Shown here in pieces: positions 10,829 to 39,181 of a stretch of DNA of 39,181 nucleotides. The notes beneath the pieces were generated by a model that searched no databases, was not told the origin of the DNA, and worked only from the letters and a program-made list of their open reading frames with translations. The stretch comes from Eubacteriales bacterium (GTDB lineage: Bacteria; Bacillota; Clostridia; Oscillospirales; CAG-272): positions 1 to 39,181 of the forward strand of contig JBJFHS010000250.1 of the NCBI GenBank assembly GCA_051893885.1, in the 5' to 3' direction. The translations under genes were made by a program, and so were the position numbers. Position 1 is the first letter of the stretch. Every line of letters starts with the position of its first letter.

Positions 10829-10876
10829 TTTTCCCACCCCTTCTGTCATATGACATAAAATTACATTATTATAGGT

Positions 10877-10905
10877 ATTATAGCATAAATCCGCGCAAAT
10901 GTCCA
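10877..10905 (-). promoter_or_regulatory. Sigma-A type promoter for the 269-aa hypothetical gene
   Basis: The minus strand reads TGGACA (10905-10900), 17 nt, then TGcTATAAT (TATAAT at 10882-10877). Confidence 0.55.
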
Positions 10906-10909
10906 CAAT

Positions 10910-10957
10910 AAAAATGAAAAATCCTCCGCACGGCATCACAGCAGCTATACGGAGGAT
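10910..10957 (-). terminator. Intrinsic terminator after the glycosidase-like gene
   Basis: On the minus strand, ATCCTCCG (10957-10950) pairs with CGGAGGAT (10928-10921), followed by TTTTCATTTTT. Confidence 0.75.
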
Positions 10958-11006
10958 CAACTGTTTTTAGAGGACAAAAATCGTCAGAAAATATGCCTGA
11001 ATCTGT

Positions 11007-24704: not shown

Positions 24705-24728
24705 ATTGTTCAATTCCGACCCTTTCAA

Positions 24729-26531
24729 TTATTTCTTAGAGATAGCGCCAAACTTACACTTTTCAATACAAGCTCCGCACTTTACGCACTTTTCCTTATC
24801 GATAACGTGAGCTTCCTTAACCTTACCGCTGATAGCACCAGCCGGGCAGTTTCTCGCGCAGAGAGTACATCCGCGGCACTTGTCGGGATCGATTTCGTAG
24901 GAGAGAAGCTTCTTGCAGACGCCTGCGGGGCACTTCTTGTCGACGATGTGTGCGATATATTCGTCGCGGAAGAAGTGGAGAGTGGAGAGAATCGGGTTGG
25001 GCGCTGTCTGACCGAGTGCGCAGAGAGAAGCGGACTTTATGTAGTTAGCCAGTTCTTCAAGCTTGTCAAGGTCTTCCATTTCGCCGTTGCCGGATGTAAT
25101 CTTGTTGAGTATCTCGAGAAGTCTTACCGTACCGATACGGCAGGGAGAGCACTTACCGCAGGATTCGTCGACTGTGAACTCGAGGAAGAATTTAGCGATA
25201 TCGACCATACAGGTGTCCTCGTCCATTACGATAAGACCGCCGGAACCCATCATGCAGCCGATTTTTGTGAGGTTGTCAAAGTCGATAGGTGTGTCGATGA
25301 GGGAAGCGGGGATACATCCGCCGGAAGGACCGCCTGTCTGAGCAGCCTTGAACTTCTTTCCGTTCGGTACGCCGCCGCCGATTTCCTCGACGATTTCACG
25401 GAGCGTTGTACCCATCGGAATTTCAACGAGACCTGTGTTCTTGATCTTGCCGCCGAGAGCGAATACCTTAGTACCCTTTGAACCCTCAGTACCCATGGAA
25501 GCGAACCAGTCCGCACCCTTGAGGATGATCTGAGCGACGTTAGCGAGGGTTTCAACGTTGTTTACGATGGTAGGCTGACCCCAGAGACCCTTGACTGCCG
25601 GGAACGGAGGACGGGGACGGGGTTCGCCGCGGTTGCCTTCGATGGAGGTGAGAAGAGCTGTTTCTTCACCGCATACGAACGCGCCGGCGCCGAGTCTGAT
25701 GTGAATATCGAAGTTGAAGCCTGTTCCGAAGATATCCTTGCCGAGCAGACCGTATTCTCTCGCCTGTTCGATAGCGATGTTGAGTCTCTTTACGGCGATA
25801 GGATACTCAGCGCGGACGTAGATCCAACCCTCGTCAGCTCCGATAGCGTAGCCGGCGATAGCCATAGCTTCGAGAACGGAGTGCGGGTCGCCTTCGAGAA
25901 CGGAACGGTCCATGAACGCACCCGGGTCGCCCTCGTCGGCGTTACATACGACGTATTTTTTGTCGGAAACGGAAGCGCGTGCGAACTGCCACTTGCGTCC
26001 TGTCGGGAATCCGCCGCCGCCTCTGCCTCTTAGTCCTGAGTCGAGGATGGTCTTGATTACGTCTTCGGGAGTCATTTCCTTGAGGACCTTGGCGAGTGCA
26101 AAGTAACCGTCCATTGCGATGTACTCGTCGATAACTTCGGGGTTGATAACACCGCAGTTACGGAGAGCGACTCTCTTCTGCTTCTTGTAGAATGCGGTCT
26201 GGTTGAGGGATGCGGCAACTGCTTCTTCCTCGCCCTTTGTGTCTCCGGTTTCATTGTATACAAGGCGTTCGACGATACGGCCCTTGAGGAGGTGTTCGGA
26301 TACGATTTCGGGGATATCCTCGGGAGTTACTCTTGAATAGAAGGTTCCTTCGGGATAGATAATCATAATCGGACCGAGTGCGCAGAGACCGAAGCAGCCC
26401 GTCTGGACTATTTTGACCTCCTCCTCAAGTCCTTTTATCTTAAGCTCATCGGCGAGCTTTTCACGGATGGCACGGCTGCCAGAGGAAGTACATCCCGTAC
26501 CGCCGCACACCAATACATGAGAACGAATCAT
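24729..26531 (-). CDS. hydB: HydB, NuoF-like flavoprotein subunit (NAD(P)H/FMN-binding) with Trx-like 2Fe-2S N-domain and C-terminal 2x[4Fe-4S]
   Basis: It contains GRGGGGFPTGRKW (FMN site), ESCGKCSPCR, and the C-terminal CRGCTLCARNCP and CVKCGACIEKC motifs. The RBS is AGGAGGA. Confidence 0.9.
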   Translation of the reverse strand: MIRSHVLVCGGTGCTSSGSRAIREKLADELKIKGLEEEVKIVQTGCFGLCALGPIMIIYPEGTFYSRVTPEDIPEIVSEHLLKGRIVERLVYNETGDTKGEEEAVAASLNQTAFYKKQKRVALRNCGVINPEVIDEYIAMDGYFALAKVLKEMTPEDVIKTILDSGLRGRGGGGFPTGRKWQFARASVSDKKYVVCNADEGDPGAFMDRSVLEGDPHSVLEAMAIAGYAIGADEGWIYVRAEYPIAVKRLNIAIEQAREYGLLGKDIFGTGFNFDIHIRLGAGAFVCGEETALLTSIEGNRGEPRPRPPFPAVKGLWGQPTIVNNVETLANVAQIILKGADWFASMGTEGSKGTKVFALGGKIKNTGLVEIPMGTTLREIVEEIGGGVPNGKKFKAAQTGGPSGGCIPASLIDTPIDFDNLTKIGCMMGSGGLIVMDEDTCMVDIAKFFLEFTVDESCGKCSPCRIGTVRLLEILNKITSGNGEMEDLDKLEELANYIKSASLCALGQTAPNPILSTLHFFRDEYIAHIVDKKCPAGVCKKLLSYEIDPDKCRGCTLCARNCPAGAISGKVKEAHVIDKEKCVKCGACIEKCKFGAISKK

Positions 26532-26553
26532 AAGTGTTTTTTCCTCCTAAAAG

Positions 26554-26925
26554 TTATATCTTGGTCGCGCCGATTGTGTATTCTGTAACGATTTCGCCGC
26601 CTTTGATGTGCTTTTCGATAACTTCTGCGGCGCGCTCTGCTGTCATCTTGACGTATGTTACCTTTTCCTTGTCCTTTTCGTAAACTTCTACGACGGGCTC
26701 GTACTGGCAGATACCGATGCAGCCGGTCTGGGTGACTGTTACCTTATCGGAAAGACCCGAGTTTGAGATTCCCTCAACAAAAGCGTTGAGTACAGGACGT
26801 GCACCCGCAGCGATTCCGCAGGTAGCCATGCCGACTACTATTCTGATGTCTCCGCTGGAGGTGCGGACAGAAACCTTGTCCTGCATTTTGGCCTTTATAG
26901 CCTTGAGTTCCTCAAGTGACTTCAT
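26554..26925 (-). CDS. Thioredoxin-like [2Fe-2S] ferredoxin (HndB/HydD-like small subunit)
   Basis: The 123-aa protein has the GMATCGIAAG...TGCIGICQYEP cysteine pattern. Confidence 0.8.
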   Translation of the reverse strand: MKSLEELKAIKAKMQDKVSVRTSSGDIRIVVGMATCGIAAGARPVLNAFVEGISNSGLSDKVTVTQTGCIGICQYEPVVEVYEKDKEKVTYVKMTAERAAEVIEKHIKGGEIVTEYTIGATKI

Positions 26926-26994
26926 AATGTGGTATTCCTTTCTATTTTGTAAAAATAATTAACTGTTTTAATAAGTTTATGCGACTTTACCTTT

Positions 26995-27558
26995 TCAGCT
27001 CTGCTTACCTGTAAGCTCAGCATACTGCTCCCTGAGATATCCGTCTATCCATGTCAGAATTTCCGGCTCCGCGAGGGATATGTCCTCTCCCAGAGTTTCT
27101 CTCAGTTCACGGCAGGACAGCTCAACCTTTCCCTCCGGCATTGTGTGCGTAAAGGTGAAGTTGACGTCGGGCGAGCCCTGAATCAGCGTCGTCACCGTTG
27201 ACACAATATCGCCAAGCGGGATAAAGTCGATGTGATTTTTGCCGAACTTTGCCGTGGTCGTGGTGCCGTGGTTTTCGCTGACCGTCTCGGAAACAGACTC
27301 GACCTTGACCCAGCCGCCCGTCATCTCCGCGAGCATGGTGAGAAACGGCACGCCGAGTCCGACCTTGCGCGTTTTGCGGGTGGTGAAGAACGGATTCGTC
27401 AGCTTTTTTACCTGTTCCTCCGTCATTCCGCAGCCGTTGTCGCTCACGCTGAAGTAAAGCCATTCGCCGTCCTCGGTGAGGGTAATCGAAATCTCAGTCG
27501 CGCCCGCCCTTACCGAGTTCATAGTGATATCGAGCACATACAGTGACAGCTCATCCAT
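26995..27558 (-). CDS. Stand-alone histidine-kinase-like ATPase (HATPase_c) protein without a DHp/His domain
   Basis: It has an N-box-like DITMNSVRAG, G1 DNGCGM, then FFTTRK and G2 GLGVPF. It overlaps the PHP gene by 8 nt. Confidence 0.8.
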   Translation of the reverse strand: MDELSLYVLDITMNSVRAGATEISITLTEDGEWLYFSVSDNGCGMTEEQVKKLTNPFFTTRKTRKVGLGVPFLTMLAEMTGGWVKVESVSETVSENHGTTTTAKFGKNHIDFIPLGDIVSTVTTLIQGSPDVNFTFTHTMPEGKVELSCRELRETLGEDISLAEPEILTWIDGYLREQYAELTGKQS

Positions 27559-28315
27559 TTTCGTCAGCGTCCTTTCGTGTGTCTGTACCGAGCAGGTAAT
27601 CTATCAGCCGGTTGCGCACATACGAGCTTGAATAAGGCTCGTCGTCAAGCGGGATTGCGAAATTTGCCTCCGATATGTCCCACAGATAGTGCGCGTCGGA
27701 CGAAACCGCTCTCGGCAGTTTTCTAATAATCGGGAATTTTTCCTCGTATTCGGCGAGAGAGGCGGCGTCGTTGAGCTCGTAAGCTGTGTACGCCGGTTCT
27801 TCCGGAAAAGTGCCGAGCATTGCCACAATGCCGTTTGAAGTCCGGTCGATGTGAGCGGGATAGCAGACACCTCCGCGTGAGATAACCTCCGAAAACGCGT
27901 CCTCAAGGGTCAGATCCGTCGCGTTTATAAGGAGATTTTCCTCCTCACCGCACACCTCGTCGTTTTCGTCCCTAATGTACTGGTGACCGAAGATCTCCGG
28001 CTTGTTCGGGAATGGGATGCGGTGTTCCTCGACGAATCTGTCGAACTTCATGGCGTCGTGAAGCTCGCGGAAAAGGCACACAACATGAATGTCCTCCGCG
28101 GTGGTCAGCTCCATTCCGGGCACGGGGATCAGTCCCTGCATTCTCGCCTGAGCGAAAAACGCCGGACAGTTCTTTGCGGTGTTGTGATCCGTCAGCGCGA
28201 TGATGTTCAGACCGTTGATGAGCGCCATTCCGACGATGTTCGCGGGTGTCATCTCGTCGTCGCCGCAGGGTGAGAGGCAGGAGTGTATGTGAAGGTCACA
28301 GAAGTAGTCTCTCAT
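27551..28315 (-). CDS. PHP (polymerase/histidinol-phosphatase) domain metal-dependent phosphoesterase
   Basis: It contains DLHIHSCLSPCGDD and IIALTDHNT motifs. The RBS is GAGGG. Confidence 0.8.
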   Translation of the reverse strand: MRDYFCDLHIHSCLSPCGDDEMTPANIVGMALINGLNIIALTDHNTAKNCPAFFAQARMQGLIPVPGMELTTAEDIHVVCLFRELHDAMKFDRFVEEHRIPFPNKPEIFGHQYIRDENDEVCGEEENLLINATDLTLEDAFSEVISRGGVCYPAHIDRTSNGIVAMLGTFPEEPAYTAYELNDAASLAEYEEKFPIIRKLPRAVSSDAHYLWDISEANFAIPLDDEPYSSSYVRNRLIDYLLGTDTRKDADENG

Positions 28316-28327
28316 TTCACAAAGCCC

Positions 28328-28651
28328 TCAGTTCACGCCCGCAATCATCACGCAGAGCTCATACACCGTTTTGTCGGAGGAGAGCACGGTGATGTCGTTC
28401 TCACGCGCAGCCTCGAGAGCATCGGGAAGAAGCTCCACACCCTCGGCCAGAATCACCGCAGCGGCTTCAGTCAGGCTTGCGACGGCGATGACGTTGGTGT
28501 TGGACATGATGGTTATCCAGAGATTGTCCATCTTGACGTGGCTCATCGCGCGGCTGAGAAGGTCTCCGGCGTAGACTGTGTTCCACTCGCGTGAGACGTC
28601 TCCGCAGACAACTTTGAGAGAGAGCTTATCGCATAATTCTGATACGGTCAT
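28328..28651 (-). CDS. DRTGG domain protein (copy 2)
   Basis: It is 107 aa with the YAGDLLSRAMSH...ITIMSNTNVIAVAS pattern. It has a 4-nt ATGA overlap with the upstream gene. Confidence 0.7.
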   Translation of the reverse strand: MTVSELCDKLSLKVVCGDVSREWNTVYAGDLLSRAMSHVKMDNLWITIMSNTNVIAVASLTEAAAVILAEGVELLPDALEAARENDITVLSSDKTVYELCVMIAGVN

Positions 28652-30006
28652 TCCGGTTTTCCTCCCGTCTTATCGCCGTCTTCTTTTTCGGAGATCGGTG
28701 TGATCGGCTTCAGGGCATCGAGAGCCGACTTGTCTTTGTGCTGTTCGAGATACTGGTGGAACATCTCACGCATGATGACCGTACACTCGTCCGCCGTGGT
28801 TTCGCCTTTGACGATATCCTCCGCGAACGCCATGCAGGTAGGAGCACCGCATGAGCCGCAGTCGATTTTCGGAAGGCTTTCGGTTATGGATTCGATGTCG
28901 CTCATCATTTTTCTCGCCTTTTTCCTGTCGTCGGAGAGAAGGCTTGACGGGCTGTATTCCACCTGATTTTCGTTGAAGAATTTGTCGGGTATCCACTCGC
29001 TCGCGGGTCTGTTGGGAGAAACGGGGAGATACCTCTTGAGCGCCTGAAGTCTCGCCTGTGCGATGTACGGGTTCGCTACGGTCATAGCTCCTCCGACGCA
29101 TCCGCCGCTGCACGCATTCAGCTCGACGAAATCAAGGCTTGTCATTTCCTCGTTGTCGATCTGGTCGAGCACCTTGATGCAGTTTTCGATTCCGTCTGCG
29201 GCGAGATACCGCTCGTTGAATATAGCGGACGACTCTCCTCCCGTTGTTGCCCATCCGATTCCTATCATGCCGGATTCGGTGGTTTCGGCGGGGTCGTCCT
29301 TTTGATTCTTCATGATGTCAAGAAGGGCGAAATACACATCTCTGACAGAAACCGTTGCGTCGATGTAATTCCGCTCTCCCGCGAAGTTGTTCTTTACATA
29401 GCTCACTTTCGCGGGGCAGGGGGAGATAAATATTATACCGATGTCCTCGTCACTCAGCTCCGGGTGCTCCTTTTTCGCCTTATCCCTCGCGAGGCAGGCT
29501 GCGATGTCGATAGGCGGGAGTATCGGCATGACGTTGTCGCACAAAAACGGATAGTTCATGCTTATCATCCGTGTGATTGTGGGGCAGGCGGAACTTATGA
29601 CCGGCTTTTTGACGTCGTTTCGCTTTATGTATAGCCGTGTGTATGCAGAAACAAGTTCGGCGGCGCAGGCAACCTCAAAGACGTCGTCAAAGCCCATCTC
29701 ACGCAGCCCGCGCAGAATGTGACCGATGTCGTCCATGTTGTTGAACTGTCCGTACAGAGACGGAGCGGGCAGCGCAACCCTGTATTTGTAGTTTCCTATA
29801 CACGAAATGTCGTCGTGTGTTGCTTTTTTTGCTTTATACGGGCACACCTTTATGCACTCGCCGCAGTCTATGCACCTCTCCGAATTGATAACCGCGTGAC
29901 CGCCGCGGATTCGTATCGCCTCGGTTGGGCATCTCTTGAGGCAGGTGGTGCAGCCCTTGCATTTGTTTGTCTCAAGCGAGACCGAGTGCTTGTAATCTGT
30001 TATCAT
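28648..30006 (-). CDS. Putative sensory [FeFe]-hydrogenase-like protein (HydS-like): 2x[4Fe-4S] + short H-domain + C-terminal Cx2Cx4Cx16C domain
   Basis: The ferredoxin motifs are CKGCTTCLKRCP and CIDCGECIKVCP. The H-cluster-like motifs are ISSACP (instead of TSCCP), SPCPAK and ELNACSGGCVGG. The C-terminus reads CGSCGAPTC-x16-C. Confidence 0.8.
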   Translation of the reverse strand: MITDYKHSVSLETNKCKGCTTCLKRCPTEAIRIRGGHAVINSERCIDCGECIKVCPYKAKKATHDDISCIGNYKYRVALPAPSLYGQFNNMDDIGHILRGLREMGFDDVFEVACAAELVSAYTRLYIKRNDVKKPVISSACPTITRMISMNYPFLCDNVMPILPPIDIAACLARDKAKKEHPELSDEDIGIIFISPCPAKVSYVKNNFAGERNYIDATVSVRDVYFALLDIMKNQKDDPAETTESGMIGIGWATTGGESSAIFNERYLAADGIENCIKVLDQIDNEEMTSLDFVELNACSGGCVGGAMTVANPYIAQARLQALKRYLPVSPNRPASEWIPDKFFNENQVEYSPSSLLSDDRKKARKMMSDIESITESLPKIDCGSCGAPTCMAFAEDIVKGETTADECTVIMREMFHQYLEQHKDKSALDALKPITPISEKEDGDKTGGKPE

Positions 30007-30078
30007 TGATACACCTCGATACGTTATCAGTTATTTTCGGCAAAGTAACGGAGTAACGTACTTACGGGGCGGGACGAA

Positions 30079-30501
30079 TTACAACTTGACTTTCATGGTA
30101 ATTGTGGTGCCGACTCCTACCGTAGTGTCGATGTTCATGAAGTCGGTGTATTTTTTCATGTTCGGAAGTCCCATTCCCGCGCCAAAGCCGAGAGCTCTTA
30201 TGCTGTCACGCGCTGTGGAATAACCCTCCTGCATCGCGAGTGCGACGTCCGGTATGCCGGGGCCGGTATCGCTGAGCACAATTATTATCTCGTCGTCGTT
30301 CACTTCAACGTCAGCGCTTCCGCCGTTTGCGTGGATTACCATATTTATTTCGCCTTCATACATCGCAATAGACACCTTGCGTATGACGTCCGGCGGATAT
30401 CCAAGCTGTCGGAGCTTCTTTTTTACCACAACAGATGCCTCTCCTGCCGACGAAAAGTTTTCGCCGTCCACATCAAAGTGGAATCTGATTACGTCAGACA
30501 T
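30079..30501 (-). CDS. RsbW/SpoIIAB-like anti-sigma-factor-type Ser/Thr protein kinase (HATPase_c_2)
   Basis: It is 140 aa starting MSDVIRFHF. Motifs include EASVVVKK...AMYEGEINMVIHA...DTGPGIPD...GFGAGMGLPNMKK. The start at 30501 has an AAGGGTGA RBS and overlaps the upstream DRTGG gene by 8 nt. Confidence 0.75.
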   Translation of the reverse strand: MSDVIRFHFDVDGENFSSAGEASVVVKKKLRQLGYPPDVIRKVSIAMYEGEINMVIHANGGSADVEVNDDEIIIVLSDTGPGIPDVALAMQEGYSTARDSIRALGFGAGMGLPNMKKYTDFMNIDTTVGVGTTITMKVKL

Positions 30502-30862
30502 GGGCGTCACCCTTGTGTGCGGGATTGTTACCCAGCCCGGCAGTATAAAGAAGACCGCACGCCTCATATGCGCGGAGAGTCGATCGCATAACGGTAATTC
30601 CGCATTCCTCAGCCAGAGCTATCATCTCCGGAGTGGGAGTTTTGCTTCTTACAAACACGATACATACCATATCCATCATATTTGCGGTGCGAATTACCTG
30701 AGAATTGGACAGTCCCGTAAGCAGTACCCCCTGATCCTTTACAAAGGCGAGAACGTCGCTCATCATATCGCTGCAGCACGCGGAGGAAACCTCATGGTCA
30801 AGGCATTCCTCACCGCACAAAAGCTCAGCTCCGAGCAGATTCTGAATTTCTCTTATTTTCAT
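30494..30862 (-). CDS. DRTGG domain protein (copy 1)
   Basis: It is 122 aa with the CCSDMMSDVLAF...VLLTGLSNSQVIRTA pattern. The RBS is GAGGT. Confidence 0.7.
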   Translation of the reverse strand: MKIREIQNLLGAELLCGEECLDHEVSSACCSDMMSDVLAFVKDQGVLLTGLSNSQVIRTANMMDMVCIVFVRSKTPTPEMIALAEECGITVMRSTLRAYEACGLLYTAGLGNNPAHKGDAHV

Positions 30863-30928
30863 GTGTACCTCATTCTGCCGCGCGGCAAATATTCAATTCG
30901 GATTTATTTTAAGGTATTGATAACGATG

Positions 30929-31426
30929 TCAGTCCTGATATTTTGCGAGGATGTCCTTCAGCATTGAGGGCTCAAGTCTGCCGTAAACGTCTTCACCGAT
31001 CGTCATAACGGGAGCGAGACCGCAGGCACCGATGCATCTTGTGGCGTCGAGGCTGAAGCGGAGATCGGGTGTGATAGAGCCGCTCTTGATTCCGAGCATT
31101 TCCTCAAGTTTTTCCATGATAATGCCGGAGCCCTTTACGTAGCAGGCTGTGCCGAGACATACTGCAACGGGATGAGAGCCCTTCGGGTTGAGCTGGAACT
31201 GTGAATAGAAGGTTACTACGCCGAAAACCTCGGAGTAGGGGATGTCGAGCTCTGCTGCGATATGCTTCTGAACTTCGACGGGGAGATATCCGTAGATGTC
31301 CTGAGCCTTCTGGAGCACCGGCATGAGCGCGCCCTTCTGATTCTTGTTTTCAGCGATAACCGCGTCAAGAGCGGCGAGCTGTTCAGCTGTACCGTGGAAG
31401 GGGACAGTTGTCATTGCTTTTTTCAT
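30929..31426 (-). CDS. hydC: HydC, NuoE-like [2Fe-2S] subunit
   Basis: The 165-aa protein has the CLGTACYVKG...CIGACGLAPV cysteine pattern typical of the NuoE/24-kDa subunit. The RBS is AGGAGGA. Confidence 0.9.
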   Translation of the reverse strand: MKKAMTTVPFHGTAEQLAALDAVIAENKNQKGALMPVLQKAQDIYGYLPVEVQKHIAAELDIPYSEVFGVVTFYSQFQLNPKGSHPVAVCLGTACYVKGSGIIMEKLEEMLGIKSGSITPDLRFSLDATRCIGACGLAPVMTIGEDVYGRLEPSMLKDILAKYQD

Positions 31427-31547: not shown

Positions 31548-32381
31548 TTATTTATTGCAGAATGCTTCGACTCTGTCGGCTGCGGCTTCGAGGTAATCGT
31601 TTTCCATGAGCTCGATCACGCCCTTGTCTACGAGAGCGGAGAGCTTTTCGTCAATGGGCATTCTTCCGAGCAGCTCGATGCCGTATTCCTTGCAGACTTC
31701 CTCGGCTTTTGACTTGCCGAATACGTTTATCTCACGTCCGCAGTCGGGGCATTTTACATAGGACATATTTTCGACAAGACCGATTACGGGGATATTCATC
31801 ATAGCCGCCATGTTTACAGCCTTGCCGACTATCATTGACACGAGATCCTGTGGTGTGGTGACGATGATCACGCCGTCGAGCTTGATTGACTGGAATACGG
31901 TGAGCGGAACGTCGCCGGTTCCCGGAGGGCAGTCGATGAACATATAGTCGACATCTCCCCAGACTACGTCGGTCCAGAACTGCTTTACAGTGCCGGCGAT
32001 AACGGGGCCTCTCCATACGACGGGGCGTGTTTCTTCCTCGAGAAGGAGGTTTACGGATATCATTTTAATGCCGGTTTTTGTTGCGAGAGGGAGGAGACCG
32101 TCTCCTGTTGAGAGGATGTCGCCCTTTGTGCCGAACGCCTTGGGGATTGAGGGGCCGGTAACGTCGGCGTCGAGGATAGCGCATTTGTTGTCGCGTCTCT
32201 GCATGATTGTTGCGAGCATGGAGGTGACTATTGATTTGCCGACTCCTCCCTTGCCGGAGACTACACCGATGACGTGCTTTATATGTGAGTCCTTGTGCGG
32301 CGCGTCGTGCTGCGGTTCACGTGACGAGCAGTTGGCGGAGCAGGTGGAACAGTCATGTGTGCATTCTTTGTTTTCTGCCAT
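31548..32381 (-). CDS. Mrp/NBP35 (ApbC) family P-loop ATPase, Fe-S cluster carrier type, with Cys-rich N-terminus
   Basis: It has the deviant Walker A SGKGGVGKS, a C-terminal CPDCG motif and an N-terminal CTHDCSTCSANC stretch. The start is placed at MAENKE (32381) after GGAAAGGAA. Confidence 0.85.
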   Translation of the reverse strand: MAENKECTHDCSTCSANCSSREPQHDAPHKDSHIKHVIGVVSGKGGVGKSIVTSMLATIMQRRDNKCAILDADVTGPSIPKAFGTKGDILSTGDGLLPLATKTGIKMISVNLLLEEETRPVVWRGPVIAGTVKQFWTDVVWGDVDYMFIDCPPGTGDVPLTVFQSIKLDGVIIVTTPQDLVSMIVGKAVNMAAMMNIPVIGLVENMSYVKCPDCGREINVFGKSKAEEVCKEYGIELLGRMPIDEKLSALVDKGVIELMENDYLEAAADRVEAFCNK

Positions 32382-32440
32382 AGTGGTTATTCCTTTCCAA
32401 AACATTATCAATAAGCATAAGAATTATCATACTTAGAATT

Positions 32441-32469
32441 ATTATATAACATTTTGCCGAAAAATACAA
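32441..32469 (-). promoter_or_regulatory. Sigma-A type promoter for the mrp-hyd transcription unit
   Basis: The minus strand reads TTGTAT (32469-32464), 17 nt, then TATAAT (32446-32441). Confidence 0.5.
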
Positions 32470-32589: not shown

Positions 32590-35400
32590 TCATTTTTTTG
32601 ACCTGCGAATTGCCGCAGCTGACGCATAGCAGATAAAATACAGCACTGTTATCGCAGCCGCGGGAATCAGAGCAAACAGCGCACTGAGCGTCGCAGCCTC
32701 TCCCGAGCACAGCTTTGCCCCAACCTTTGTCAGCATCAGAAATGACGTCAGCGCAGCGGAGAAAAGTATGAAAAGTATATCGGCGTTGCTGAGCGAATTC
32801 CGCTTCTTTTTCGGCTTTAGTATCACCTCGGTCAGTATAAGTCCCGATAAAATCACGCCGCCGGAGAGTACCGATGCGCCCTCGCCCGCCGATTTTGTCA
32901 CGTATAACGCTAAATACGCCGTCAGAGAGAGTATCGCGCCCCAGATGATCCCAAAAATTACCGGCACAGCTGAGGAGAAATCCACGGGTTTTTGCGTTGC
33001 TTCGTCCTCGTCTCCGTTGTCAGCCTTTGATGAGACAATGCCGGATGAGCGAATTTCCATAAAATTGCCGAACGCCATTACGAGAGACGCCGTAAAGTCG
33101 AACAGCAGTCCCCATATGAGTATGAAAACCGCCGAAAGCTGGGGAAGGGAAAAAATTACCGACGCGAACATTACGCAAAGCCGCGCGCTCTGTGACGCAG
33201 TGAGGTAGAATTTCGCGCTCTCAATGTTGCCTGACGCCCTGAGCGACGACTTGATCACACGCACCACGCCGTCAAGTCCGCCCGACTGTGAGTCATATCC
33301 TATAGACTGACTGTTATGCTGTTTGGAATTACTGTCATGCTGTCCACCGTTTGCCGCAAAATCGGGATAAACCACGGCGTCCGAATTCCGCGCGAGTGTT
33401 TCGGGTATCGTTCTGACGTTTGAGGCGGCGACAGTTATTCCGTGCTCGGCCTCTGCTAAAACTCCCGAGTTCCAGACGCTTCTTCCGACCGCTATCGAGT
33501 CCTCTCCGCCGAGCTGCTTCATTATCTGCGCGGAAGATGCGGCAAATTCACGCTCGCTCATACCCTCAAATGAAATTACGGCGGGATTGTTTCCGTTCCT
33601 GATCGACTCAATTCCGGCGTTGTCAGTCGCGTGCAGCACTTTCGCGTTTTTGACGAACAGCCCGAGCTTTAATAAATAGTAGTAATCAGCCTGCGCGTTC
33701 TGCGTGAAAAGTATCGGAGAAACGCCGCGCCGGGTGAGAAATTCGATGTTTTCCCGAGCGTACCTCTCCTCTTTTTCAGCTATTGCGAAGTATCCTACAA
33801 ATGTCATGTACTGCGTCAGCACGGGCAGCCTTGTCAGACTCTGGAACTGTGATTTTCTCTTTGCCACCGCAACAACGCGTCCGCCGCTTATCTCAAGACG
33901 GGCACATTCGGTGAAAATTTTCTTTTTTGTCTCAAAATCGAGCTCAGCTATGCCGTTTTCAGTCTCAACTGATGTGCAGCAGCGCATTACGTCGTCGATT
34001 TTGCCGCAGGAAATTGCGTAAAATTCGTTTTCGATAAGTACAAGAGAGGTTTCCGTCCCCATCGAGCCCTCAGCCTCATGACCGCGGTGGTCTGCGAGAG
34101 CACATTCGGACGGGATATTTTTCATCACGGCTTTGATGTATGCCTCAGCAGCGAGGGAAGTGAGAGTTTCCGATTCACTGTTCTTTACGCTTTCGCCGCC
34201 GCTTGAGAGCCCCGTATTCACGCTCAGAGAAGCCGATTTCGCATAGTCTATAATCCGCTCAAGGGATTTGTCCTCGATGAGACCGTCCTTTGCTTCCCTG
34301 TAGCCGCCCGATGTTCTGTAAGCAGAGATGACCGCCTCTCCCGATTTGAAATACGACGAGCCGCAGAACACGATCCGGCTGACACGTCCGATTCCTCCGA
34401 GCTTTTCGGGATTCCGTATGACCGCGCGGGTGGAGAGCTCACTGTGACCGCACTTCCACTTTTTGTCGGCGCAGTCGCGGATTGACACCGAGAAAATTAT
34501 GTATCCGATAACGGTCAGAAATTCGCTCATCGCCGCGGTCGCCATAGCCATCGAGGACAGAAAAACGCTTGGAAGGCTGTTGTTTTTTCCGAGAGCCATC
34601 GACAGCACCGTCAGCACCATTACGCATCCGAGCATTACGAGCGAAACGGTTCGGCTTTTTATTTTCAGCTTCTCGATTTCGGGAATTTCCGCCGTCTCAA
34701 GCTCAATTCCGCCCTGTTTCATCGCGATAAGAGTGTCGTCTCCCGTAGCAGTGACAACCATCCTGACCGAGCCGGAAATTACGCTTGAGCCGGCAAAAAG
34801 CATATTCGAGCGGTATTCGCACGGCACGTCGTGGCTTCCTTTGGCGAGCTGTATGGCGGAGTTGAACTTCTTCACCGGGGTTTTGTTCTCGGTAATTCCG
34901 CGCTCGAGAACAGACGCCCCGAAGCCTGACACCACACGCCCGTCGCATGGAACGGTGTCACCCGCCTCGAGGAACACGATGTCACCCGGAACCAGCTCGA
35001 GCGCGGACGGCATCTTTAATTTTCCGCCCCTTATGACGGAACAGGCGGGTATTTTAGACTTCGCGGAATCCTCCAAAATGCGGTTGGCCCTGATGAACGT
35101 GACGCTGCGCATTACAGCTCCGATTATCAGTATTGCGCTCAGCCAGCCTGCCTCATAGCTCTTGTCGAAAAGTGCGGCACAGACGGCGGCGACTACCAGT
35201 ATCAGCGTGGCGATATCGAAAACCGACGACGCAATGCTGGACAGCGACGGCGAATGCCTGATGTGCCACAGCGAGTTTGAGCCGTATTTCTTCCTGCGCC
35301 GCGCCGCCTCCCGGTCGTCAAGCCCCTTGTACATATCGACTGACAGCCGCTCAAGGGTCTCCCTGTCCGTCAGAAGATGCCAGTCGTTTTTTGATTCCAT
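32590..35400 (-). CDS. P-type (P2-like) cation ATPase homolog lacking all catalytic signature motifs (pseudo-ATPase)
   Basis: It has a Cation_ATPase_N-like N-terminus, an A-domain (PGDIVFLEAGDTVPCDGRVV) and about 10 TM segments. However, DKTGT is replaced by GSSYF, TGES by ITEN, PEGLP by SEFLT, DPPR by EKEE, TGD by TQN and GDGVND by GRSVWN. Confidence 0.8.
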   Translation of the reverse strand: MESKNDWHLLTDRETLERLSVDMYKGLDDREAARRRKKYGSNSLWHIRHSPSLSSIASSVFDIATLILVVAAVCAALFDKSYEAGWLSAILIIGAVMRSVTFIRANRILEDSAKSKIPACSVIRGGKLKMPSALELVPGDIVFLEAGDTVPCDGRVVSGFGASVLERGITENKTPVKKFNSAIQLAKGSHDVPCEYRSNMLFAGSSVISGSVRMVVTATGDDTLIAMKQGGIELETAEIPEIEKLKIKSRTVSLVMLGCVMVLTVLSMALGKNNSLPSVFLSSMAMATAAMSEFLTVIGYIIFSVSIRDCADKKWKCGHSELSTRAVIRNPEKLGGIGRVSRIVFCGSSYFKSGEAVISAYRTSGGYREAKDGLIEDKSLERIIDYAKSASLSVNTGLSSGGESVKNSESETLTSLAAEAYIKAVMKNIPSECALADHRGHEAEGSMGTETSLVLIENEFYAISCGKIDDVMRCCTSVETENGIAELDFETKKKIFTECARLEISGGRVVAVAKRKSQFQSLTRLPVLTQYMTFVGYFAIAEKEERYARENIEFLTRRGVSPILFTQNAQADYYYLLKLGLFVKNAKVLHATDNAGIESIRNGNNPAVISFEGMSEREFAASSAQIMKQLGGEDSIAVGRSVWNSGVLAEAEHGITVAASNVRTIPETLARNSDAVVYPDFAANGGQHDSNSKQHNSQSIGYDSQSGGLDGVVRVIKSSLRASGNIESAKFYLTASQSARLCVMFASVIFSLPQLSAVFILIWGLLFDFTASLVMAFGNFMEIRSSGIVSSKADNGDEDEATQKPVDFSSAVPVIFGIIWGAILSLTAYLALYVTKSAGEGASVLSGGVILSGLILTEVILKPKKKRNSLSNADILFILFSAALTSFLMLTKVGAKLCSGEAATLSALFALIPAAAITVLYFICYASAAAIRRSKK

Positions 35401-35452
35401 AAAAACATACCTTTCGGTTTATTGCGATTGCTGAATCATTCTGCCTGCTGAA

Positions 35453-37729
35453 TCATTTCACTTTGATTCCGTTTTCGTCGGCGTCGACAGTCACGTGTTC
35501 AAGCAGACCGCGCTTTGCAATAATCAGCTCGGCTATTTTGTCCTCTATCTCTGTCTGAATCAGGCGGCGCATATTTCTCGCACCGAACTTGACCGAATAC
35601 GATTTTTCCGACACGTAATCGCGCGCAGATGAGGTGAAGTCGACCGAAATTCCCTTTTTGTCGAGAACACCCTCGAGGTCGGAGAACATTATGTCCGCTA
35701 TCGCCTTGAAGTTTTCCTTTGAGAGCGGGTTGAATGTGATTATCTCGTCCACGCGGTTTATGAACTCGGGGCGGAGGAATTCCTCGAGAGCTCTCCTTGT
35801 CTTGTCCTCGGTCATAGCCTTGGGAGAGTCTGCAAAGCCCGCCTTGGCCTGAGCGTATGTGCTGCCCGCGTTTGTCGTCATGACGATTATCGTGTTTGTG
35901 AAGTCGACCTGTTTTCCGTGAGAGTCGGTGATTATTCCGTCGTCGAGTATCTGGAGCAGAATGTTCATTACGTCGGGGTGCGCCTTCTCGATTTCGTCGA
36001 ACAGGATCACGGAATACGGTCTGCGGCGGATTTTTTCGGTGAGCTGACCCGCGTCGTCGTATCCAACGTATCCCGGAGGAGAGCCTATTATGCGCGATAC
36101 CGAGAACTTGTCCATGAATTCGCTCATGTCGAGCCTTATAAGAGTCTCGGGCGAGTTGAACAGATCCGCGGCGAGCACCTTGACAAGCTCCGTTTTTCCC
36201 ACGCCTGTAGGACCTGCGAAGATGAATGATACCGGCTTTTTCTTGTACGTCACTCCGGCTCTCGAACGTCTTACCGCGCGTGATACCGCGTTCACAGCCT
36301 CGTTCTGACCGACGATTCTGAGAGAAAGGCGTTTTTCGAGCATCTCGAGCTTTTCGTACTCGCTCTCCGCAATCGCAGACGCCGGAACTCCCGTCCATAT
36401 CTCGATTACGTCGCACAGGTCGCTCTCGTTCATCATCACGTTGCCGCAGAGTATATCCAGCTCGCCGAGACGGTTTTCGATTCGCATCTGTTCCGCTCTG
36501 TAGTCTGCGAGCTTTTTGTACCGCTCTTCGGCTTCCTCGTCCGATTTCGGAGCTTCACCGCCGTTGATCAGCGCCTCAAGCTCTCCCATCTCTTTTTCAA
36601 CCCGAACTTTGCGGTCTGCGAGCTCGTGACGTTCGTTTATCTCGGGCGTGTTAACGGAGATGTGCGACGCCGCCTCGTCGATTAAGTCTATCGCCTTGTC
36701 GGGGAGGTATCGGTCGGTGATGTATCTCTCTGACAGCTGTGCTGCGGAGGAAAGGAGCGAATCCGCTATCTTCACGCCGTGGTAGTCCTCGTAATACTTC
36801 TTGATTCCGCGCAGAATGTCTACGGTTTCGTCAACTGATGGCTCGTTTACCATGACCGGCTGAAAACGTCTCTCGAGCGCGGTGTCCTTTTCGATGTATT
36901 TTCTGTATTCGGTGAGTGTCGTCGCGCCGATAACCTGAATCTCACCCCTTGAGAGGGCGGGCTTGAGTATATTCGCGGCGTTCATGCTTCCCTCGGCGTC
37001 ACCTACTCCGACGATATTGTGCACCTCGTCGATCACAAGGATGACATTCCCCTTTGCCTTTACGTCTCCGAGAAGTCCGAGCACGCGTGATTCAAACTGA
37101 CCCCTGAACTGGGTTCCGGCGACAAGCGCGGTCAGATCGAGCAGGCAGACGTCGTGGTCCTTCAGCCTGTACGGGACGTTTCCTGAGGCAATTTTTTCGG
37201 CGAGAGCTTCGGCAATCGCGGTTTTTCCGACGCCCGGCTCACCGATAAGACAGGGGTTGTTCTTCTGTCTGCGGCAGAGAATCTGAATTACTCTCTCAAG
37301 CTCACGGTCGCGTCCGACTATTCTGTCGAGCTTTCCCTCACGCGCCCTCTGGGTCAGGTTGGTGGTATAGCCGGAGAGGTATTTGTACTCCTTTTCTCCG
37401 CCATCCTTGCTTTTCTCGCGATTTTTGGTGCCCGATTCCGACTTTTTCGCGCCCTCGCCCATCAGCTTTGAGAAATTGAGCAGGGGAGCCGCTCCGTTTG
37501 TTTCGCCCGGAGTTATCTCACCGCTGTCGATGAGCTCCTGCATATCGCTGTTGAGGCGCTCTATCGTCTCGTCGTCAAGGCCTTCGCGGGCGAGAATATC
37601 GTCCATCGGCTTTATTCCGAGCTCTTTTGCGCACTTGATGCAGAAACCCTGCGGTTTGTCATTCCCGCTCTGAGCGTTGTAAAGAAAAACTACAGCCACT
37701 CTTTTATGGCATCTTGAACACATTGTCAT
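35453..37729 (-). CDS. ClpC/ClpA-class double-AAA+ unfoldase with an N-terminal C4 zinc ribbon instead of Clp_N repeats
   Basis: D1 has GEPGVGKT, D2 has GPTGVGKT, and sensor and arginine-finger regions are present. The AGF loop resembles the ClpP-docking tripeptide. The N-terminus has C4-x2-C7-x22-C30-x2-C33. Confidence 0.85.
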   Translation of the reverse strand: MTMCSRCHKRVAVVFLYNAQSGNDKPQGFCIKCAKELGIKPMDDILAREGLDDETIERLNSDMQELIDSGEITPGETNGAAPLLNFSKLMGEGAKKSESGTKNREKSKDGGEKEYKYLSGYTTNLTQRAREGKLDRIVGRDRELERVIQILCRRQKNNPCLIGEPGVGKTAIAEALAEKIASGNVPYRLKDHDVCLLDLTALVAGTQFRGQFESRVLGLLGDVKAKGNVILVIDEVHNIVGVGDAEGSMNAANILKPALSRGEIQVIGATTLTEYRKYIEKDTALERRFQPVMVNEPSVDETVDILRGIKKYYEDYHGVKIADSLLSSAAQLSERYITDRYLPDKAIDLIDEAASHISVNTPEINERHELADRKVRVEKEMGELEALINGGEAPKSDEEAEERYKKLADYRAEQMRIENRLGELDILCGNVMMNESDLCDVIEIWTGVPASAIAESEYEKLEMLEKRLSLRIVGQNEAVNAVSRAVRRSRAGVTYKKKPVSFIFAGPTGVGKTELVKVLAADLFNSPETLIRLDMSEFMDKFSVSRIIGSPPGYVGYDDAGQLTEKIRRRPYSVILFDEIEKAHPDVMNILLQILDDGIITDSHGKQVDFTNTIIVMTTNAGSTYAQAKAGFADSPKAMTEDKTRRALEEFLRPEFINRVDEIITFNPLSKENFKAIADIMFSDLEGVLDKKGISVDFTSSARDYVSEKSYSVKFGARNMRRLIQTEIEDKIAELIIAKRGLLEHVTVDADENGIKVK

Positions 37730-37767: not shown

Positions 37768-38499
37768 TTACCACTTTATGATTTTGTTCACGGCATCGAT
37801 AGGGTTGTGCTCCATCAGATATTTGCAGATTCGGGTGTCCTCGACCACATCCTTGCCGAACAGGGAGGGGTCTATCGCTCCGAGTGATGATACAAGGGAG
37901 GAGAGCACCACAGCAAGTACAAACGCTGCGAGAATTGCTTCGACAACGCCGAAAATCAGTCCGAGGACGGAATTTGCCTGACTGAGCACCGGCAGCTTGA
38001 ATATCAGGTTGAGTATTGCGGTCAGTATCGAGAGCACTACGAACACAGCGAGGAAGATAAGCACGAACGAAATGCAGTTTGCTATAATCTGAGCGGTCGG
38101 GTCGGCTATCTCCTCGGCAAAGGCGCGGACCGTGTTTTCTCCGCATCCCGTGATTCCGGCGATTTTTTCCGTGAATGCGTCGATGTTCACGTTGTATCTC
38201 TCGAGAATTGAGACAAAAGGCTCCGGCAGGTCAACTGCGAGGCGGTCGAGGTTGTATAAATCCGTGCTCGTGTCGAAGGCGAGGGACTTGAGTGTTTCAA
38301 AAATTCCCTCCGTTATGCCTTCCGAGAGATATTTTGTCTTGATTATCGCCGCGAGAACGGGGGTGTATGCGTAAGCCGCGATGAAGGATACCACGGAGGT
38401 GACAAGACCCATAACTGACTTGACGAGTCCTCTGCCCGCTCCCCTCCATATTATTACAACAGCGGTCAGCAATATGATTGCGTCTATGGCTAAGCTCAA
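37768..38499 (-). CDS. cvpA: CvpA family membrane protein
   Basis: The N-terminus is IDAIILLTAVVIIWRGAGRGLVKSV, typical of CvpA, and there are about four TM segments. The start is the TTG at 38499, 6 nt after AGGAGGG. Confidence 0.8.
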   Translation of the reverse strand: MSLAIDAIILLTAVVIIWRGAGRGLVKSVMGLVTSVVSFIAAYAYTPVLAAIIKTKYLSEGITEGIFETLKSLAFDTSTDLYNLDRLAVDLPEPFVSILERYNVNIDAFTEKIAGITGCGENTVRAFAEEIADPTAQIIANCISFVLIFLAVFVVLSILTAILNLIFKLPVLSQANSVLGLIFGVVEAILAAFVLAVVLSSLVSSLGAIDPSLFGKDVVEDTRICKYLMEHNPIDAVNKIIKW

Positions 38500-38605: not shown

Positions 38606-39181
38606 TCAATCCGTAAAGGCGGGAGAAGCAGAGGTTTTCGAGCAGATGAGCACGCCCTTTGAGAGAGGTACTGCCGTTATTGCCTCGCCCGGGGTTTCTT
38701 CCTCACTAAGCGTGCCGTCGGAGGAGATTTTTATTATCTTCTCGGGAGAGGTCAGATACGCGGCGGCATCGGTATAGTCCACAGAGGCGTAAGCTCCCGT
38801 TATTCTCATGTCGAGGACTTTTTCGCACACCTTGTTTCCGGAGCTGTCGAATACCGCGCACTTGTTTTCGCTTCCGAGCGCGTTCGTGCTTCCCACAATC
38901 ACCGCACCGGATGAATTCAGGTCCGCAAAGCGCAGGTTGATTCCGCTGAAGCTGTAAGAGGAAGTGATTCCTCCGCTGTAGTCGAAGAAGTAAATTCCGT
39001 TGTCGCACAGCAGTATGAATCCGTCTTTCTCCGCGTGAAGCTCAAGCGGCATTGTGTGCGTGTAGGACGAGGTGTACAGCGGCGTGTCCGAGCCCTTTCT
39101 GACTATCGAGATTTCGCAGTCGAGGTCGGTCTGTGCGGGAATGCCGGATGCTATGACGATATACTCACCGTCGGGGGAAAT
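38606..39181 (-). CDS. Hypothetical protein, 5'-partial (frame open to the window edge), beta-repeat rich
   Basis: The frame continues without stops from 39181 (ISPDGEYIVIASG...) through the ORF-track Met at 39052 to the stop at 38606. I cannot assign a family confidently; it may be DUF5711-like. Confidence 0.6.
   Translation of the reverse strand: MSPDGEYIVIASGIPAQTDLDCEISIVRKGSDTPLYTSSYTHTMPLELHAEKDGFILLCDNGIYFFDYSGGITSSYSFSGINLRFADLNSSGAVIVGSTNALGSENKCAVFDSSGNKVCEKVLDMRITGAYASVDYTDAAAYLTSPEKIIKISSDGTLSEEETPGEAITAVPLSKGVLICSKTSASPAFTD

Follow-up and report, generated by a model that had tools for sequence, protein, structure and literature searches.

A predicted catalytically dead but maintained P2A-type ATPase homolog encoded beside a ClpE-type unfoldase in uncultured gut and rumen Clostridia

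Introduction

P-type ATPases are defined by a phospho-aspartate cycle. This report describes a gene whose product retains the body of such a pump while all of its catalytic motifs have been replaced. The gene is located in a stretch of 39,181 nucleotides (nt) from Eubacteriales bacterium (GTDB lineage Bacteria; Bacillota; Clostridia; Oscillospirales; CAG-272; GenBank assembly GCA_051893885.1, contig JBJFHS010000250.1, positions 1 to 39,181 of the forward strand), which is referred to as the window. It is the last member of a same-strand block with the order DUF5711 protein, CvpA-family membrane protein, ClpE-like unfoldase and pump (Table 1). Its product is a full-length descendant of a P2A (SPCA/LMCA1-like) Ca2+-ATPase in which the ten-helix membrane domain (helices M1 to M10) and the actuator (A), phosphorylation (P) and nucleotide-binding (N) folds are kept. 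The protein, named here the pseudo-pump, is almost certainly dead as a pump but maintained by selection.

Table 1. Features of the pseudo-pump gene and its neighbourhood in the window (positions in nt; residue numbers, aa, are those of the pseudo-pump).
Feature	Position	Strand	Basis or remark
Pseudo-pump gene, 936-aa catalytically dead P2A-type ATPase homolog (predicted)	32590..35400	(-)	Open reading frame, profile alignment, AlphaFold2 (AF2) model, Foldseek
Ribosome-binding site GAAAGG	35410..35415	(-)	9 nt before the pump ATG, read from the sequence; within the 52-nt gap after the ClpE-like stop codon
Cation_ATPase_N domain, aa 7-74	35179..35382	(-)	Pfam E = 4.7e-13
A domain plus M3-M4, aa 118-312	34465..35049	(-)	Pfam E1-E2_ATPase E = 2.2e-26; most conserved part of the protein
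ITEN (aa 169-172) in place of the TGES dephosphorylation loop	34885..34896	(-)	Both alignments and translation
SEFL (aa 292-295) in place of PEGL in M4	34516..34527	(-)	Both alignments and translation
IVFCGSSYFKSG, dead phosphorylation loop in place of ICTDKTGTLTQN	34339..34374	(-)	C346 at nt 34363-34365; hidden Markov model (HMM) profile, MAFFT, AF2 and translation
N-domain homolog, aa 373-530, fold kept	33811..34284	(-)	Profile and MAFFT alignments, AF2 model
CGKI (aa 465-468) in place of the KGGP / KGAP-type N-domain motif	within the N-domain homolog	(-)	Alignments and translation
EKEE (aa 542-545) in place of DPPR	33766..33777	(-)	Both alignments and translation
TQN (aa 566-568) in place of TGD	33697..33705	(-)	Both alignments and translation
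GRSVWNSG (aa 639-646) in place of the hinge GDGVNDAP	33463..33486	(-)	Both alignments and translation
Gln/Ser/Asn-rich low-complexity insertion, aa 683-706	33283..33354	(-)	Lineage-specific, predicted disordered
M5 segment YLTASQSARL	33178..33207	(-)	Q737 for the Ca-site Asn; R740 for the Ca-site Glu (position of SERCA E771)
M6 segment WGLLFDF	33094..33114	(-)	G764 for the Ca-site Asn; D768 (equivalent to SERCA D800) invariant
ClpE-type Hsp100/AAA+ unfoldase, directly upstream of the pump	35453..37729	(-)	Pfam and NCBIfam scans
CvpA-family membrane protein, upstream of the ClpE-like gene	37768..38499	(-)	Pfam Colicin_V; conserved position
DUF5711 protein, C-terminal part, running off the window end	38609..39181	(-)	tblastn, 61% identity to the DUF5711 protein of related locus L001
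Intergenic region after the pump stop codon	32412..32589	(-)	T-rich runs directly after the stop codon; TATAAT at 32441-32446 and weak -35 TTGTAT, ahead of the Mrp gene

Homology and Predicted Fold

Standard family models recognize only the N-terminal third of the protein. Its Pfam matches are limited to Cation_ATPase_N and E1-E2_ATPase, with no Hydrolase/HAD and no Cation_ATPase_C match in the same scan, and the NCBIfam P-type models all score far under their cutoffs (30.8 versus 62.3 bits for TIGR01494, and 107.5 versus 798.3 bits for the best equivalog, TIGR01522). A single-sequence search of the PDB aligned only aa 15–310, the best match being the Listeria Ca2+-ATPase LMCA1. When a family profile built from 72 homologs was used, the alignment to LMCA1 extended over the full length (positions 25–916, E = 5.6e-74); the whole protein is therefore a P2A-type homolog and its motif columns can be read directly.

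The AF2 model, built on the family alignment, shows ten transmembrane helices together with the A, P and N domains (mean predicted local distance difference test score, pLDDT, 85.1; predicted template modelling score, pTM, 0.85). In a Foldseek comparison with the PDB the full-length matches were P2-type pumps only, the best of them human SPCA1 in the CaE1 state, with all four domains superposed (TM-score 0.75/0.78). Structures in E1 states gave TM-scores of 0.65–0.68 and those in E2 states 0.48–0.55, a difference between states from which nothing is concluded.

An earlier reading of the same DNA, made from the sequence without database searches (the first-pass annotation), had described a full-length P2-type layout with a Cation_ATPase_N-like N-terminus, an actuator core, about ten membrane helices and a good ribosome-binding site. 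Each of these points agrees with the profile alignment, the Pfam matches, the AF2 model and the GAAAGG element, and the predicted structure keeps the whole SPCA/SERCA/LMCA1 fold. The Gln/Ser/Asn-rich insertion reported in that annotation at about aa 685–710 is present, although as a low-confidence, lineage-specific stretch and not as a family-wide feature (pLDDT below 50 over aa 683–702; column occupancy of 0.21 across the family).

Catalytic Motifs and their Replacements

The motif replacements were read in three ways: by profile alignment to LMCA1, in a 179-sequence MAFFT alignment of the core group that includes LMCA1, and by direct translation of the coordinates. In the window protein ICTDKTGT is replaced by IVFCGSSY, which leaves C346 at the position of the nucleophile Asp. 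This residue is regarded as the phospho-Asp equivalent because both alignments agree on it and because the predicted beta-strand 342–346 terminates there, as the HAD fold requires. The nucleophile column of the core group contains Cys in 102 sequences, Ser in 43 and Asp in none; it is never Asp in 132 sequences of the wider clade either, where it varies among Cys, Ser, Lys, Gly, Thr, Asn and Pro.

The losses extend to the remaining catalytic elements. The Lys, Thr and Gly of DKTGT and the first Asp of GDGxND are missing from the window protein, as is the catalytic Glu of the A-domain loop, a position occupied by Asn in 173/179 sequences; T170 and N172 are near-invariant in the core group. The ATP-binding Lys of KGAP is changed to Cys, in a column filled by Cys or Ser among core-group sequences and by Arg in a distant subgroup, and the helix-breaking Pro of M4 is changed to Ser. 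Because the phospho-Asp, the phosphate/Mg2+ site, the TGES Glu, the N-domain Lys and the M4 Pro have all been lost, the protein, judged from its sequence, cannot run the Post-Albers phosphorylation cycle.

Two remnants of the ancestral phosphate site were noted in the core group. A Ser or Thr is kept at the TGD position (aa 566 in the window protein) in 172 of the 179 members, and 130 of them retain the latter Asp of GDGxND, where the window protein has N644.

Most of the replacements proposed in the first-pass annotation (TGES to ITEN, PEGLP of M4 to SEFLT, DPPR to EKEE, TGD to TQN and GDGVNDAP to GRSVWNSG) were recovered by the alignments and the translation. Its placement of the Asp equivalent at S348 has to be shifted to C346, which the HMM profile, the MAFFT alignment and the end of the beta-strand all indicate, and its statement that the Asp is gone holds in either register. 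Its broader claim that every family-defining position is replaced applies to all the catalytic motifs but not to the M4 Glu E293 and the M6 Asp D768, which are retained and near-invariant. No DKTGT-type motif emerged under the profile or the MAFFT alignment, and one hidden in another register was ruled out by regular-expression searches over 120, 79 and 150 sequences together with the two independent alignments.

It is extremely unlikely that ATP-driven pumping persists in this protein by means of unconventional catalytic residues, for instance a Cys or Ser nucleophile. Such an enzyme would fit the presence of one of these two residues in the nucleophile column of 145/179 core-group sequences, the remnants just described and the intact P and N folds. 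However, the same column is unconserved in the wider clade (Lys, Gly, Thr, Asn, Pro and others), the window protein has replaced the otherwise retained Asp by N644, nothing is left of the other DKTGT residues (Lys, Thr and Gly), of the leading Asp in GDGxND, or of the catalytic Glu of TGES and the ATP-binding Lys of the N domain, and none of the members scanned produced a Pfam Hydrolase match at threshold. To our knowledge no HAD-fold phosphotransferase works without an Asp nucleophile, which also counts against a cryptic enzyme.

The Membrane Cation Site

The Ca2+ ligands of SERCA are E309, N768, E771, N796 and D800. In the window protein this P2A ligand set is incomplete: the Glu of M4 and the Asp of M6 are kept, and the Asn and Glu of M5, the Asn of M6 and the Pro of M4 are changed. 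In the MAFFT alignment the M4 Glu (E293, equivalent to SERCA E309) is kept in 156/179 sequences; M5, which bears an Asn and a Glu (N...E) in canonical pumps, has Gln in 171/179 and Arg or Lys in 179/179; and M6 has Gly in 178/179 and Asp in 178/179, the Asp being present also in 132/132 sequences of the wider clade. The dead clade can accordingly be described by the signatures [ML]-S-E-[FYL] in M4, Y-L-x-x-S-Q-x-x-R/K in M5 and G-L-x-x-D in M6, versus PEGL, YLxxxNxxE and NLxxD in active pumps. Over the whole clade this membrane signature is near-universal, in contrast to the free variation of the catalytic columns.

The membrane cation site is rewired rather than simply degraded. A positively charged M5 side chain standing in place of a Ca2+-binding Glu, beside the retained Asp and Glu, may represent a built-in cation that fills the site. 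A comparable arrangement occurs in the P3A H+-ATPase AHA2, where Asp684 of M6, at the canonical site, faces Arg655 of M5 as a built-in counter-ion (PMC10654040). The invariant M6 Asp (D768) and the M5 Arg/Lys (R740) are in this respect a P3A-like trait of the pseudo-pump clade, although P3A pumps are fully active and contain all catalytic motifs, and the clade descends instead from P2A-like pumps. R740 is presumably the positional equivalent of Arg655 in AHA2.

Distribution and Origin of the Family

A protein database search with the pseudo-pump produced 1843 matches, the best 120 of which were examined. Nearly all of these 120 are full-length proteins of about 880–1050 aa with 30–86% identity, a few being partial (about 600–850 aa), and their named sources are metagenome-assembled genomes (MAGs) of Clostridia, Eubacteriales or Ruminococcaceae. 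None of the 120 contains DKTGT, PEGL, GDGxND or a correctly placed TGES, and none has a precomputed Hydrolase match. The replacement motifs themselves are conserved among the homologs (NDWHLL, ERGITEN, VPCExRSNMLFAGS, AMSEFLT, RIVFCGSSFFKSG, FYLTASQxARL and WGLLFDFAAVLVMAFE).

When one genome of each GTDB species was scanned for peptide patterns specific to the family, 473 loci that encode a relative were located, corresponding to about 473 species-level genomes, and 79 loci were retrieved. All 79 lie in uncultured MAGs, assembled from gut or rumen samples of goats, sheep, buffalo, deer, horses, chickens and humans and labelled as Oscillospiraceae, "uncultured Ruminococcus sp.", Clostridia or Eubacteriales, including Firmicutes CAG:272 and Candidatus Flemingiibacterium. 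The reading frame is intact in 79/79 of these species representatives (880–1019 aa) unless cut by a contig end, and the proteins are free of the canonical motifs down to 24% identity.

An exhaustive profile search over 1.84 billion representatives clustered at 50% identity extended the family further. The best 150 representatives span 1364 to 287 bits, LMCA1 scoring 253 bits with the same profile, and 148 of them are devoid of DKTG, TGES, PEGL and GDGVNDAP; the other two, at ranks 136 and 144, are canonical pumps with all four motifs in place. Named members of the distant clusters are also Clostridia MAGs annotated as P-type ATPases. In a neighbour-joining tree, a crude method, a single split parts 72 degenerate from 23 canonical sequences, in agreement with the shared derived residues of the dead clade (M5 Arg, M6 Gly and M4 Ser). 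On these sequence grounds the dead clade apparently had a single origin, and the pseudo-pump is to be seen as a member of a large and deep clade of uncultured gut and rumen Clostridia and not as a lone gene.

Some distant members (P0185, P0183, P0163, P0182 and P0174) are extended after M10 by acidic, Pro/Glu/Ser-rich disordered cytoplasmic tails of 150–360 aa. A short motif (GIGYLFS[ED]xEY) recurs near the tail end, with the examples FSGIGYLFSEEEY, FTGIGYLFSDSEY and FNIIGFTMSD, and could be a docking motif. No Pfam domain was found in the C-terminal extensions of the long distant members, so that fused extra domains were discarded as an explanation of their length. The window protein and most of its close relatives are devoid of such a tail.

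Selection and Conservation

The ratio of nonsynonymous to synonymous substitution rates (dN/dS) was computed versus the two closest orthologs (86% and 82% aa identity, dS of about 0.6–0.7). It is 0.13 and 0.17 for the whole pseudo-pump and does not exceed 0.27 in any domain, with values of 0.05–0.08 for the A domain, 0.05–0.09 for M3-M4, 0.17–0.18 for the N-terminal half of the P domain, 0.10–0.15 for the N domain, 0.13–0.15 for the C-terminal half of the P domain and 0.23–0.27 for M5-M10. The "dead" domains are thus still constrained. Taken over its full length, the pump is less constrained than the adjacent genes, as dN/dS is 0.027 for the ClpE-like gene and 0.033 for the CvpA gene, and identities across loci range from 25 to 63% for the pump, 54 to 89% for the ClpE-like protein and 59 to 91% for Mrp. 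Within the family the A domain is the most conserved region (30/123 columns conserved at 90% or more), followed by M1-M2, M3-M4 and M5-M6, which are similar to one another, then by the P and N domains and lastly by M7-M10.

These data bear on the possibility that the gene is a decaying pseudogene still open by chance, as might be suspected from the disappearance of all catalytic motifs and from an evolutionary rate higher than that of the neighbouring genes. This possibility has next to no probability, considering the intact frames of 880–1019 aa in all species representatives uncut by contig ends, the occurrence of a relative in about 473 species-level genomes, dN/dS values of 0.13–0.17 at dS of about 0.6, the conservation of the replacement motifs and the confident AF2 fold; decay is ruled out by the intact frames and dN/dS in particular. 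The suggestion in the first-pass annotation that the gene is maintained for a non-catalytic function, with scaffold, sensor or channel-like roles as candidates, and has not recently decayed, is thereby supported: the orthologs show no random disruptions, their replacement motifs are conserved and the gene is under purifying selection overall. By its sequence, the window protein corresponds to a pseudoenzyme, i.e., a homolog of an enzyme without the catalytic residues that is kept by purifying selection across species.

Operon Context

The gene directly upstream of the pump encodes a ClpE-like protein whose N-terminal part bears a CxxC...CxxC zinc ribbon, conserved at 67/67 related loci. Both of its Walker A/B pairs are intact, and it has an AGF loop. 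This Hsp100 protein has no Clp_N domain and scores under all the NCBIfam ClpA/ClpB/ClpV cutoffs. The DUF5711 protein, present in 63 related loci, has, as read from its sequence, a single transmembrane helix between a short cytoplasmic N-terminus and some 350 extracytoplasmic residues.

The arrangement is recurrent. The ClpE-like gene lies directly upstream of the pump, preceded by the CvpA gene, in 9/9 places with called genes and in every one of the 79 species loci whose upstream DNA was long enough. From the stop codon of the ClpE-like gene to the start of the pump the median distance is 46 nt, and 54/79 gaps do not exceed 60 nt. The block holds as well in a distant subgroup (L088, L089, L090, L093 and L116) in which pump identity is 24–28% and ClpE identity 56–61%. 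A metagenome scan with this distant subgroup, for which the back-translated pattern proved generic, returned about 75 ordinary pumps and 6 clade members, and served as a negative control: neither ClpE nor CvpA was found beside any of the roughly 75 canonical pump loci.

The operon boundaries were drawn from spacing and from reading of the sequence, not from scanner calls. A promoter/terminator scan of the window gave nothing beyond shuffled expectation; it identified no minus-strand terminator-like site in the ClpE-pump gap and did not call the TATAAT box before mrp. The T-runs and this TATAAT box weakly suggest that the operon ends after the pump gene. The genes downstream of the pump vary among loci, most of them having Mrp and a HydABC-type hydrogenase cluster, with exceptions such as an S8 peptidase (L006) and a CoA-enzyme activase (L090).

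Other Genes in the Window

The Mrp/NUBPL Fe-S carrier gene (31548–32411) precedes a HydABC-type electron-bifurcating [FeFe]-hydrogenase cluster (22959–31426, minus strand), which follows the pseudo-pump in most related loci, though not in all. The cluster includes a HydS-like sensory hydrogenase (28648–30006), two HATPase_c proteins and a PHP-domain protein, and in related loci DRTGG proteins are also found. A canonical P-type paralog was looked for in the window and is absent; the large 860-aa reading frame at 18011–20593 (plus strand) encodes an unusual fusion of an EF-G/Tet(M)-like GTPase (GTP_EFTU, EFG_IV and EFG_C) with a C-terminal YacP-like NYN ribonuclease domain (aa 715–855). Two minus-strand frames, of 545 aa (11007–12644) and 313 aa (10019–10960), gave no Pfam match at E <= 1e-8.

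Possible Roles of the Pseudo-Pump

It is proposed, tentatively but as the likeliest of the readings considered, that the pseudo-pump serves the ClpE-type unfoldase as a membrane partner without catalytic activity, be it an anchor, an adaptor or a regulator. As a first step, the former Ca2+ site would be plugged by its built-in cation, the M5 Arg/Lys (R740) located near D768, E293 and Q737, and the membrane domain would be held in a single stable, ion-independent conformation. As a second step, the pseudo-pump would act non-catalytically with the presumably co-transcribed DUF5711 and CvpA proteins and the AAA+ unfoldase, its conserved cytoplasmic headpiece, chiefly the A domain, holding the unfoldase at the membrane, bringing it there or controlling it. 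In this role it would resemble other operon-encoded Clp partners.

Several observations weigh against this proposal. A degenerate member (L104; 2993–5824 of JAEIGA010005884.1), the sole one of its kind found, has no ClpE-like or CvpA gene upstream and is flanked instead by genes for a GFO/IDH/MocA oxidoreductase and a pectate-lyase-like protein. Because the carriers are all of a single bacterial lineage, the gene order could reflect inheritance rather than function. The pump evolves faster than the ClpE-like protein (25–63% versus 54–89% identity; dN/dS of 0.13 versus 0.03), which is unusual for a tight obligate complex. In a rate covariation (mirror tree) analysis the partial correlation between pump and ClpE was r = 0.72 with full-length proteins; at equal length (150 columns) it was 0.81 +/- 0.04 for ClpE versus 0.77 for CvpA and 0.71 +/- 0.07 for Mrp, differences that are within noise. 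Finally, the Arg-Asp salt bridge is a putative one, placed by homologous positions.

Part of this evidence would also be compatible with an autonomous protein that provides a passive proton/cation pathway or senses pH, ions or voltage through E293, Q737, R740 and D768, its linkage to ClpE being merely inherited order. That the M4 Glu, the M5 Gln and Arg/Lys and the M6 Asp are the most persistent family-specific residues clade-wide would be explained, since the buried charges of an obsolete site could have drifted to hydrophobic residues, and in P3A H+-ATPases the handling of protons is controlled by such a pair, an Arg in M5 opposite an Asp in M6 (PMC10654040). The existence of L104 apart from a ClpE-like gene and the failure of the covariation test to single out ClpE point in the same direction. 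On the other hand, a fixed Arg/Lys in the site speaks against cation binding and there is no known gating without a phosphorylation cycle. An autonomous pathway also leaves three features without explanation, namely the position of the A domain as the most constrained region (dN/dS 0.05), the selection still acting on the P and N domains and the short distance from the ClpE-like gene seen at nearly all loci. On balance it is less probable than the membrane partner.

A different relationship with the same unfoldase would be that of a substrate-like or decoy regulator. The pseudo-pump would then be a long-lived membrane protein whose cytoplasmic domains or tails are engaged by the unfoldase, the activity or availability of the latter being adjusted in this way, e.g., during membrane or heat stress. 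The operon evidence for this role is identical to that for a membrane partner, and the acidic disordered tails of several distant members (150–360 aa, with GIGYLFS[ED]xEY) are the type of element engaged by AAA+ unfoldases. A decoy is nevertheless unlikely, as tails of this kind are absent from the window protein and from most of its close relatives; it is also hard to separate by sequence from an anchor or adaptor.

The most elaborate version of the association, in which the dead pump is combined with the ClpE-type unfoldase into a single hybrid machine and the AAA+ motor substitutes for the lost P/N ATP engine, is highly unlikely. In such a machine the motor would pull on the A domain or the cytoplasmic tails to change the conformation of the membrane domain, or would use the pump as a membrane portal, and a polypeptide, lipid or ion would be extracted, dislocated or moved across or out of the membrane. 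If real, it would parallel Derlin-p97 or the P5A helix dislocase in bacteria, on a recycled Ca2+-pump chassis.

Comparison with Known Systems

With P2A pumps (LMCA1, PDB 6zhf/9euq; human SPCA1, PDB 8iwp) the pseudo-pump has in common full-length homology, ten helices and the A/P/N architecture, Cation_ATPase_N and the A-domain core residues (PGD, GD.VP.DGR, K178 and N199), and the M4 Glu and M6 Asp of the Ca2+ site. It differs from them in that DKTGT, TGES, PEGL, KGAP, DPPR, TGD and GDGxND are all replaced, in the changes of M5 Glu to Arg, M5 Asn to Gln and M6 Asn to Gly, and in being far under the NCBIfam cutoffs, fast-evolving and encoded in a ClpE-type unfoldase operon.

The sole precedent found in the literature for a maintained, motif-degenerate P-type ATPase is provided by the guanylate cyclase chimeras of alveolates (P4GC-beta; Cryptosporidium, gregarines and Tetrahymena), which include a P4-ATPase module whose DKTGT is changed or absent and whose A-domain dephosphorylation motif is changed as well, the predicted domain structure being conserved (PMC13466520). 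In both cases a P-type ATPase body persists with degenerate motifs. The P4GC-beta modules are eukaryotic, belong to the P4 flippase subfamily and are fused to a cyclase that gives the output, and their degeneration is partial and lineage-specific, whereas the pseudo-pump is bacterial, of P2A descent and free-standing, with every motif degenerate across the clade. A 2023 review of the P-type ATPase field does not discuss maintained dead members (PMC10654040). The literature searched was found to describe neither a dead P-type ATPase in bacteria nor a link between ClpE, CvpA and a P-type ATPase, a comparison that did not extend to the Saier-lab prokaryotic census; the pseudo-pumps are thus a free-standing dead P-type ATPase clade in bacteria for which we found no prior description.

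As regards the proposed partnership, operon-encoded partners of Clp/Hsp100 proteins include ClpS with ClpA, McsA/McsB with ClpC, and MecA. Derlin/iRhom and p97 offer another parallel, in which an inactive relative of a membrane enzyme is involved and Derlin recruits the AAA+ motor to the membrane. Like the Clp partners, the pseudo-pump is a predicted non-catalytic or accessory protein whose gene adjoins that of an Hsp100 protein and is probably transcribed together with it. It has no sequence or structural kinship with these partners or with Derlin, the likeness being known here from gene context, and we know of no Clp adaptor that is a polytopic membrane protein of P-type ATPase descent.

Annotation and Biological Significance

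Members of the dead clade appear in the public NCBI/JGI records as "cation-transporting P-type ATPase" or "Ca2+-transporting ATPase" (e.g., P0001, P0027, P0033, P0041, P0069, P0078, P0102, P0253 and P0155). The cation-pump label is probably a systematic error: each of the catalytic features tested is missing, so the pseudo-pump should not be filed as a cation-transporting ATPase. Such a label will mislead metabolic and transport reconstructions of the host organisms.

The existence of a free-standing, selected clade in hundreds of species indicates that the scaffold of the pump also serves a non-enzymatic purpose. This clade can be regarded as a natural experiment on which parts of the fold matter without catalysis, these being the A-domain core and the apparently Arg-plugged cation site. 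The operon link to a ClpE-type unfoldase, CvpA and DUF5711 offers a testable lead to membrane-associated proteostasis in the abundant, uncultured Clostridia of the gut and rumen.

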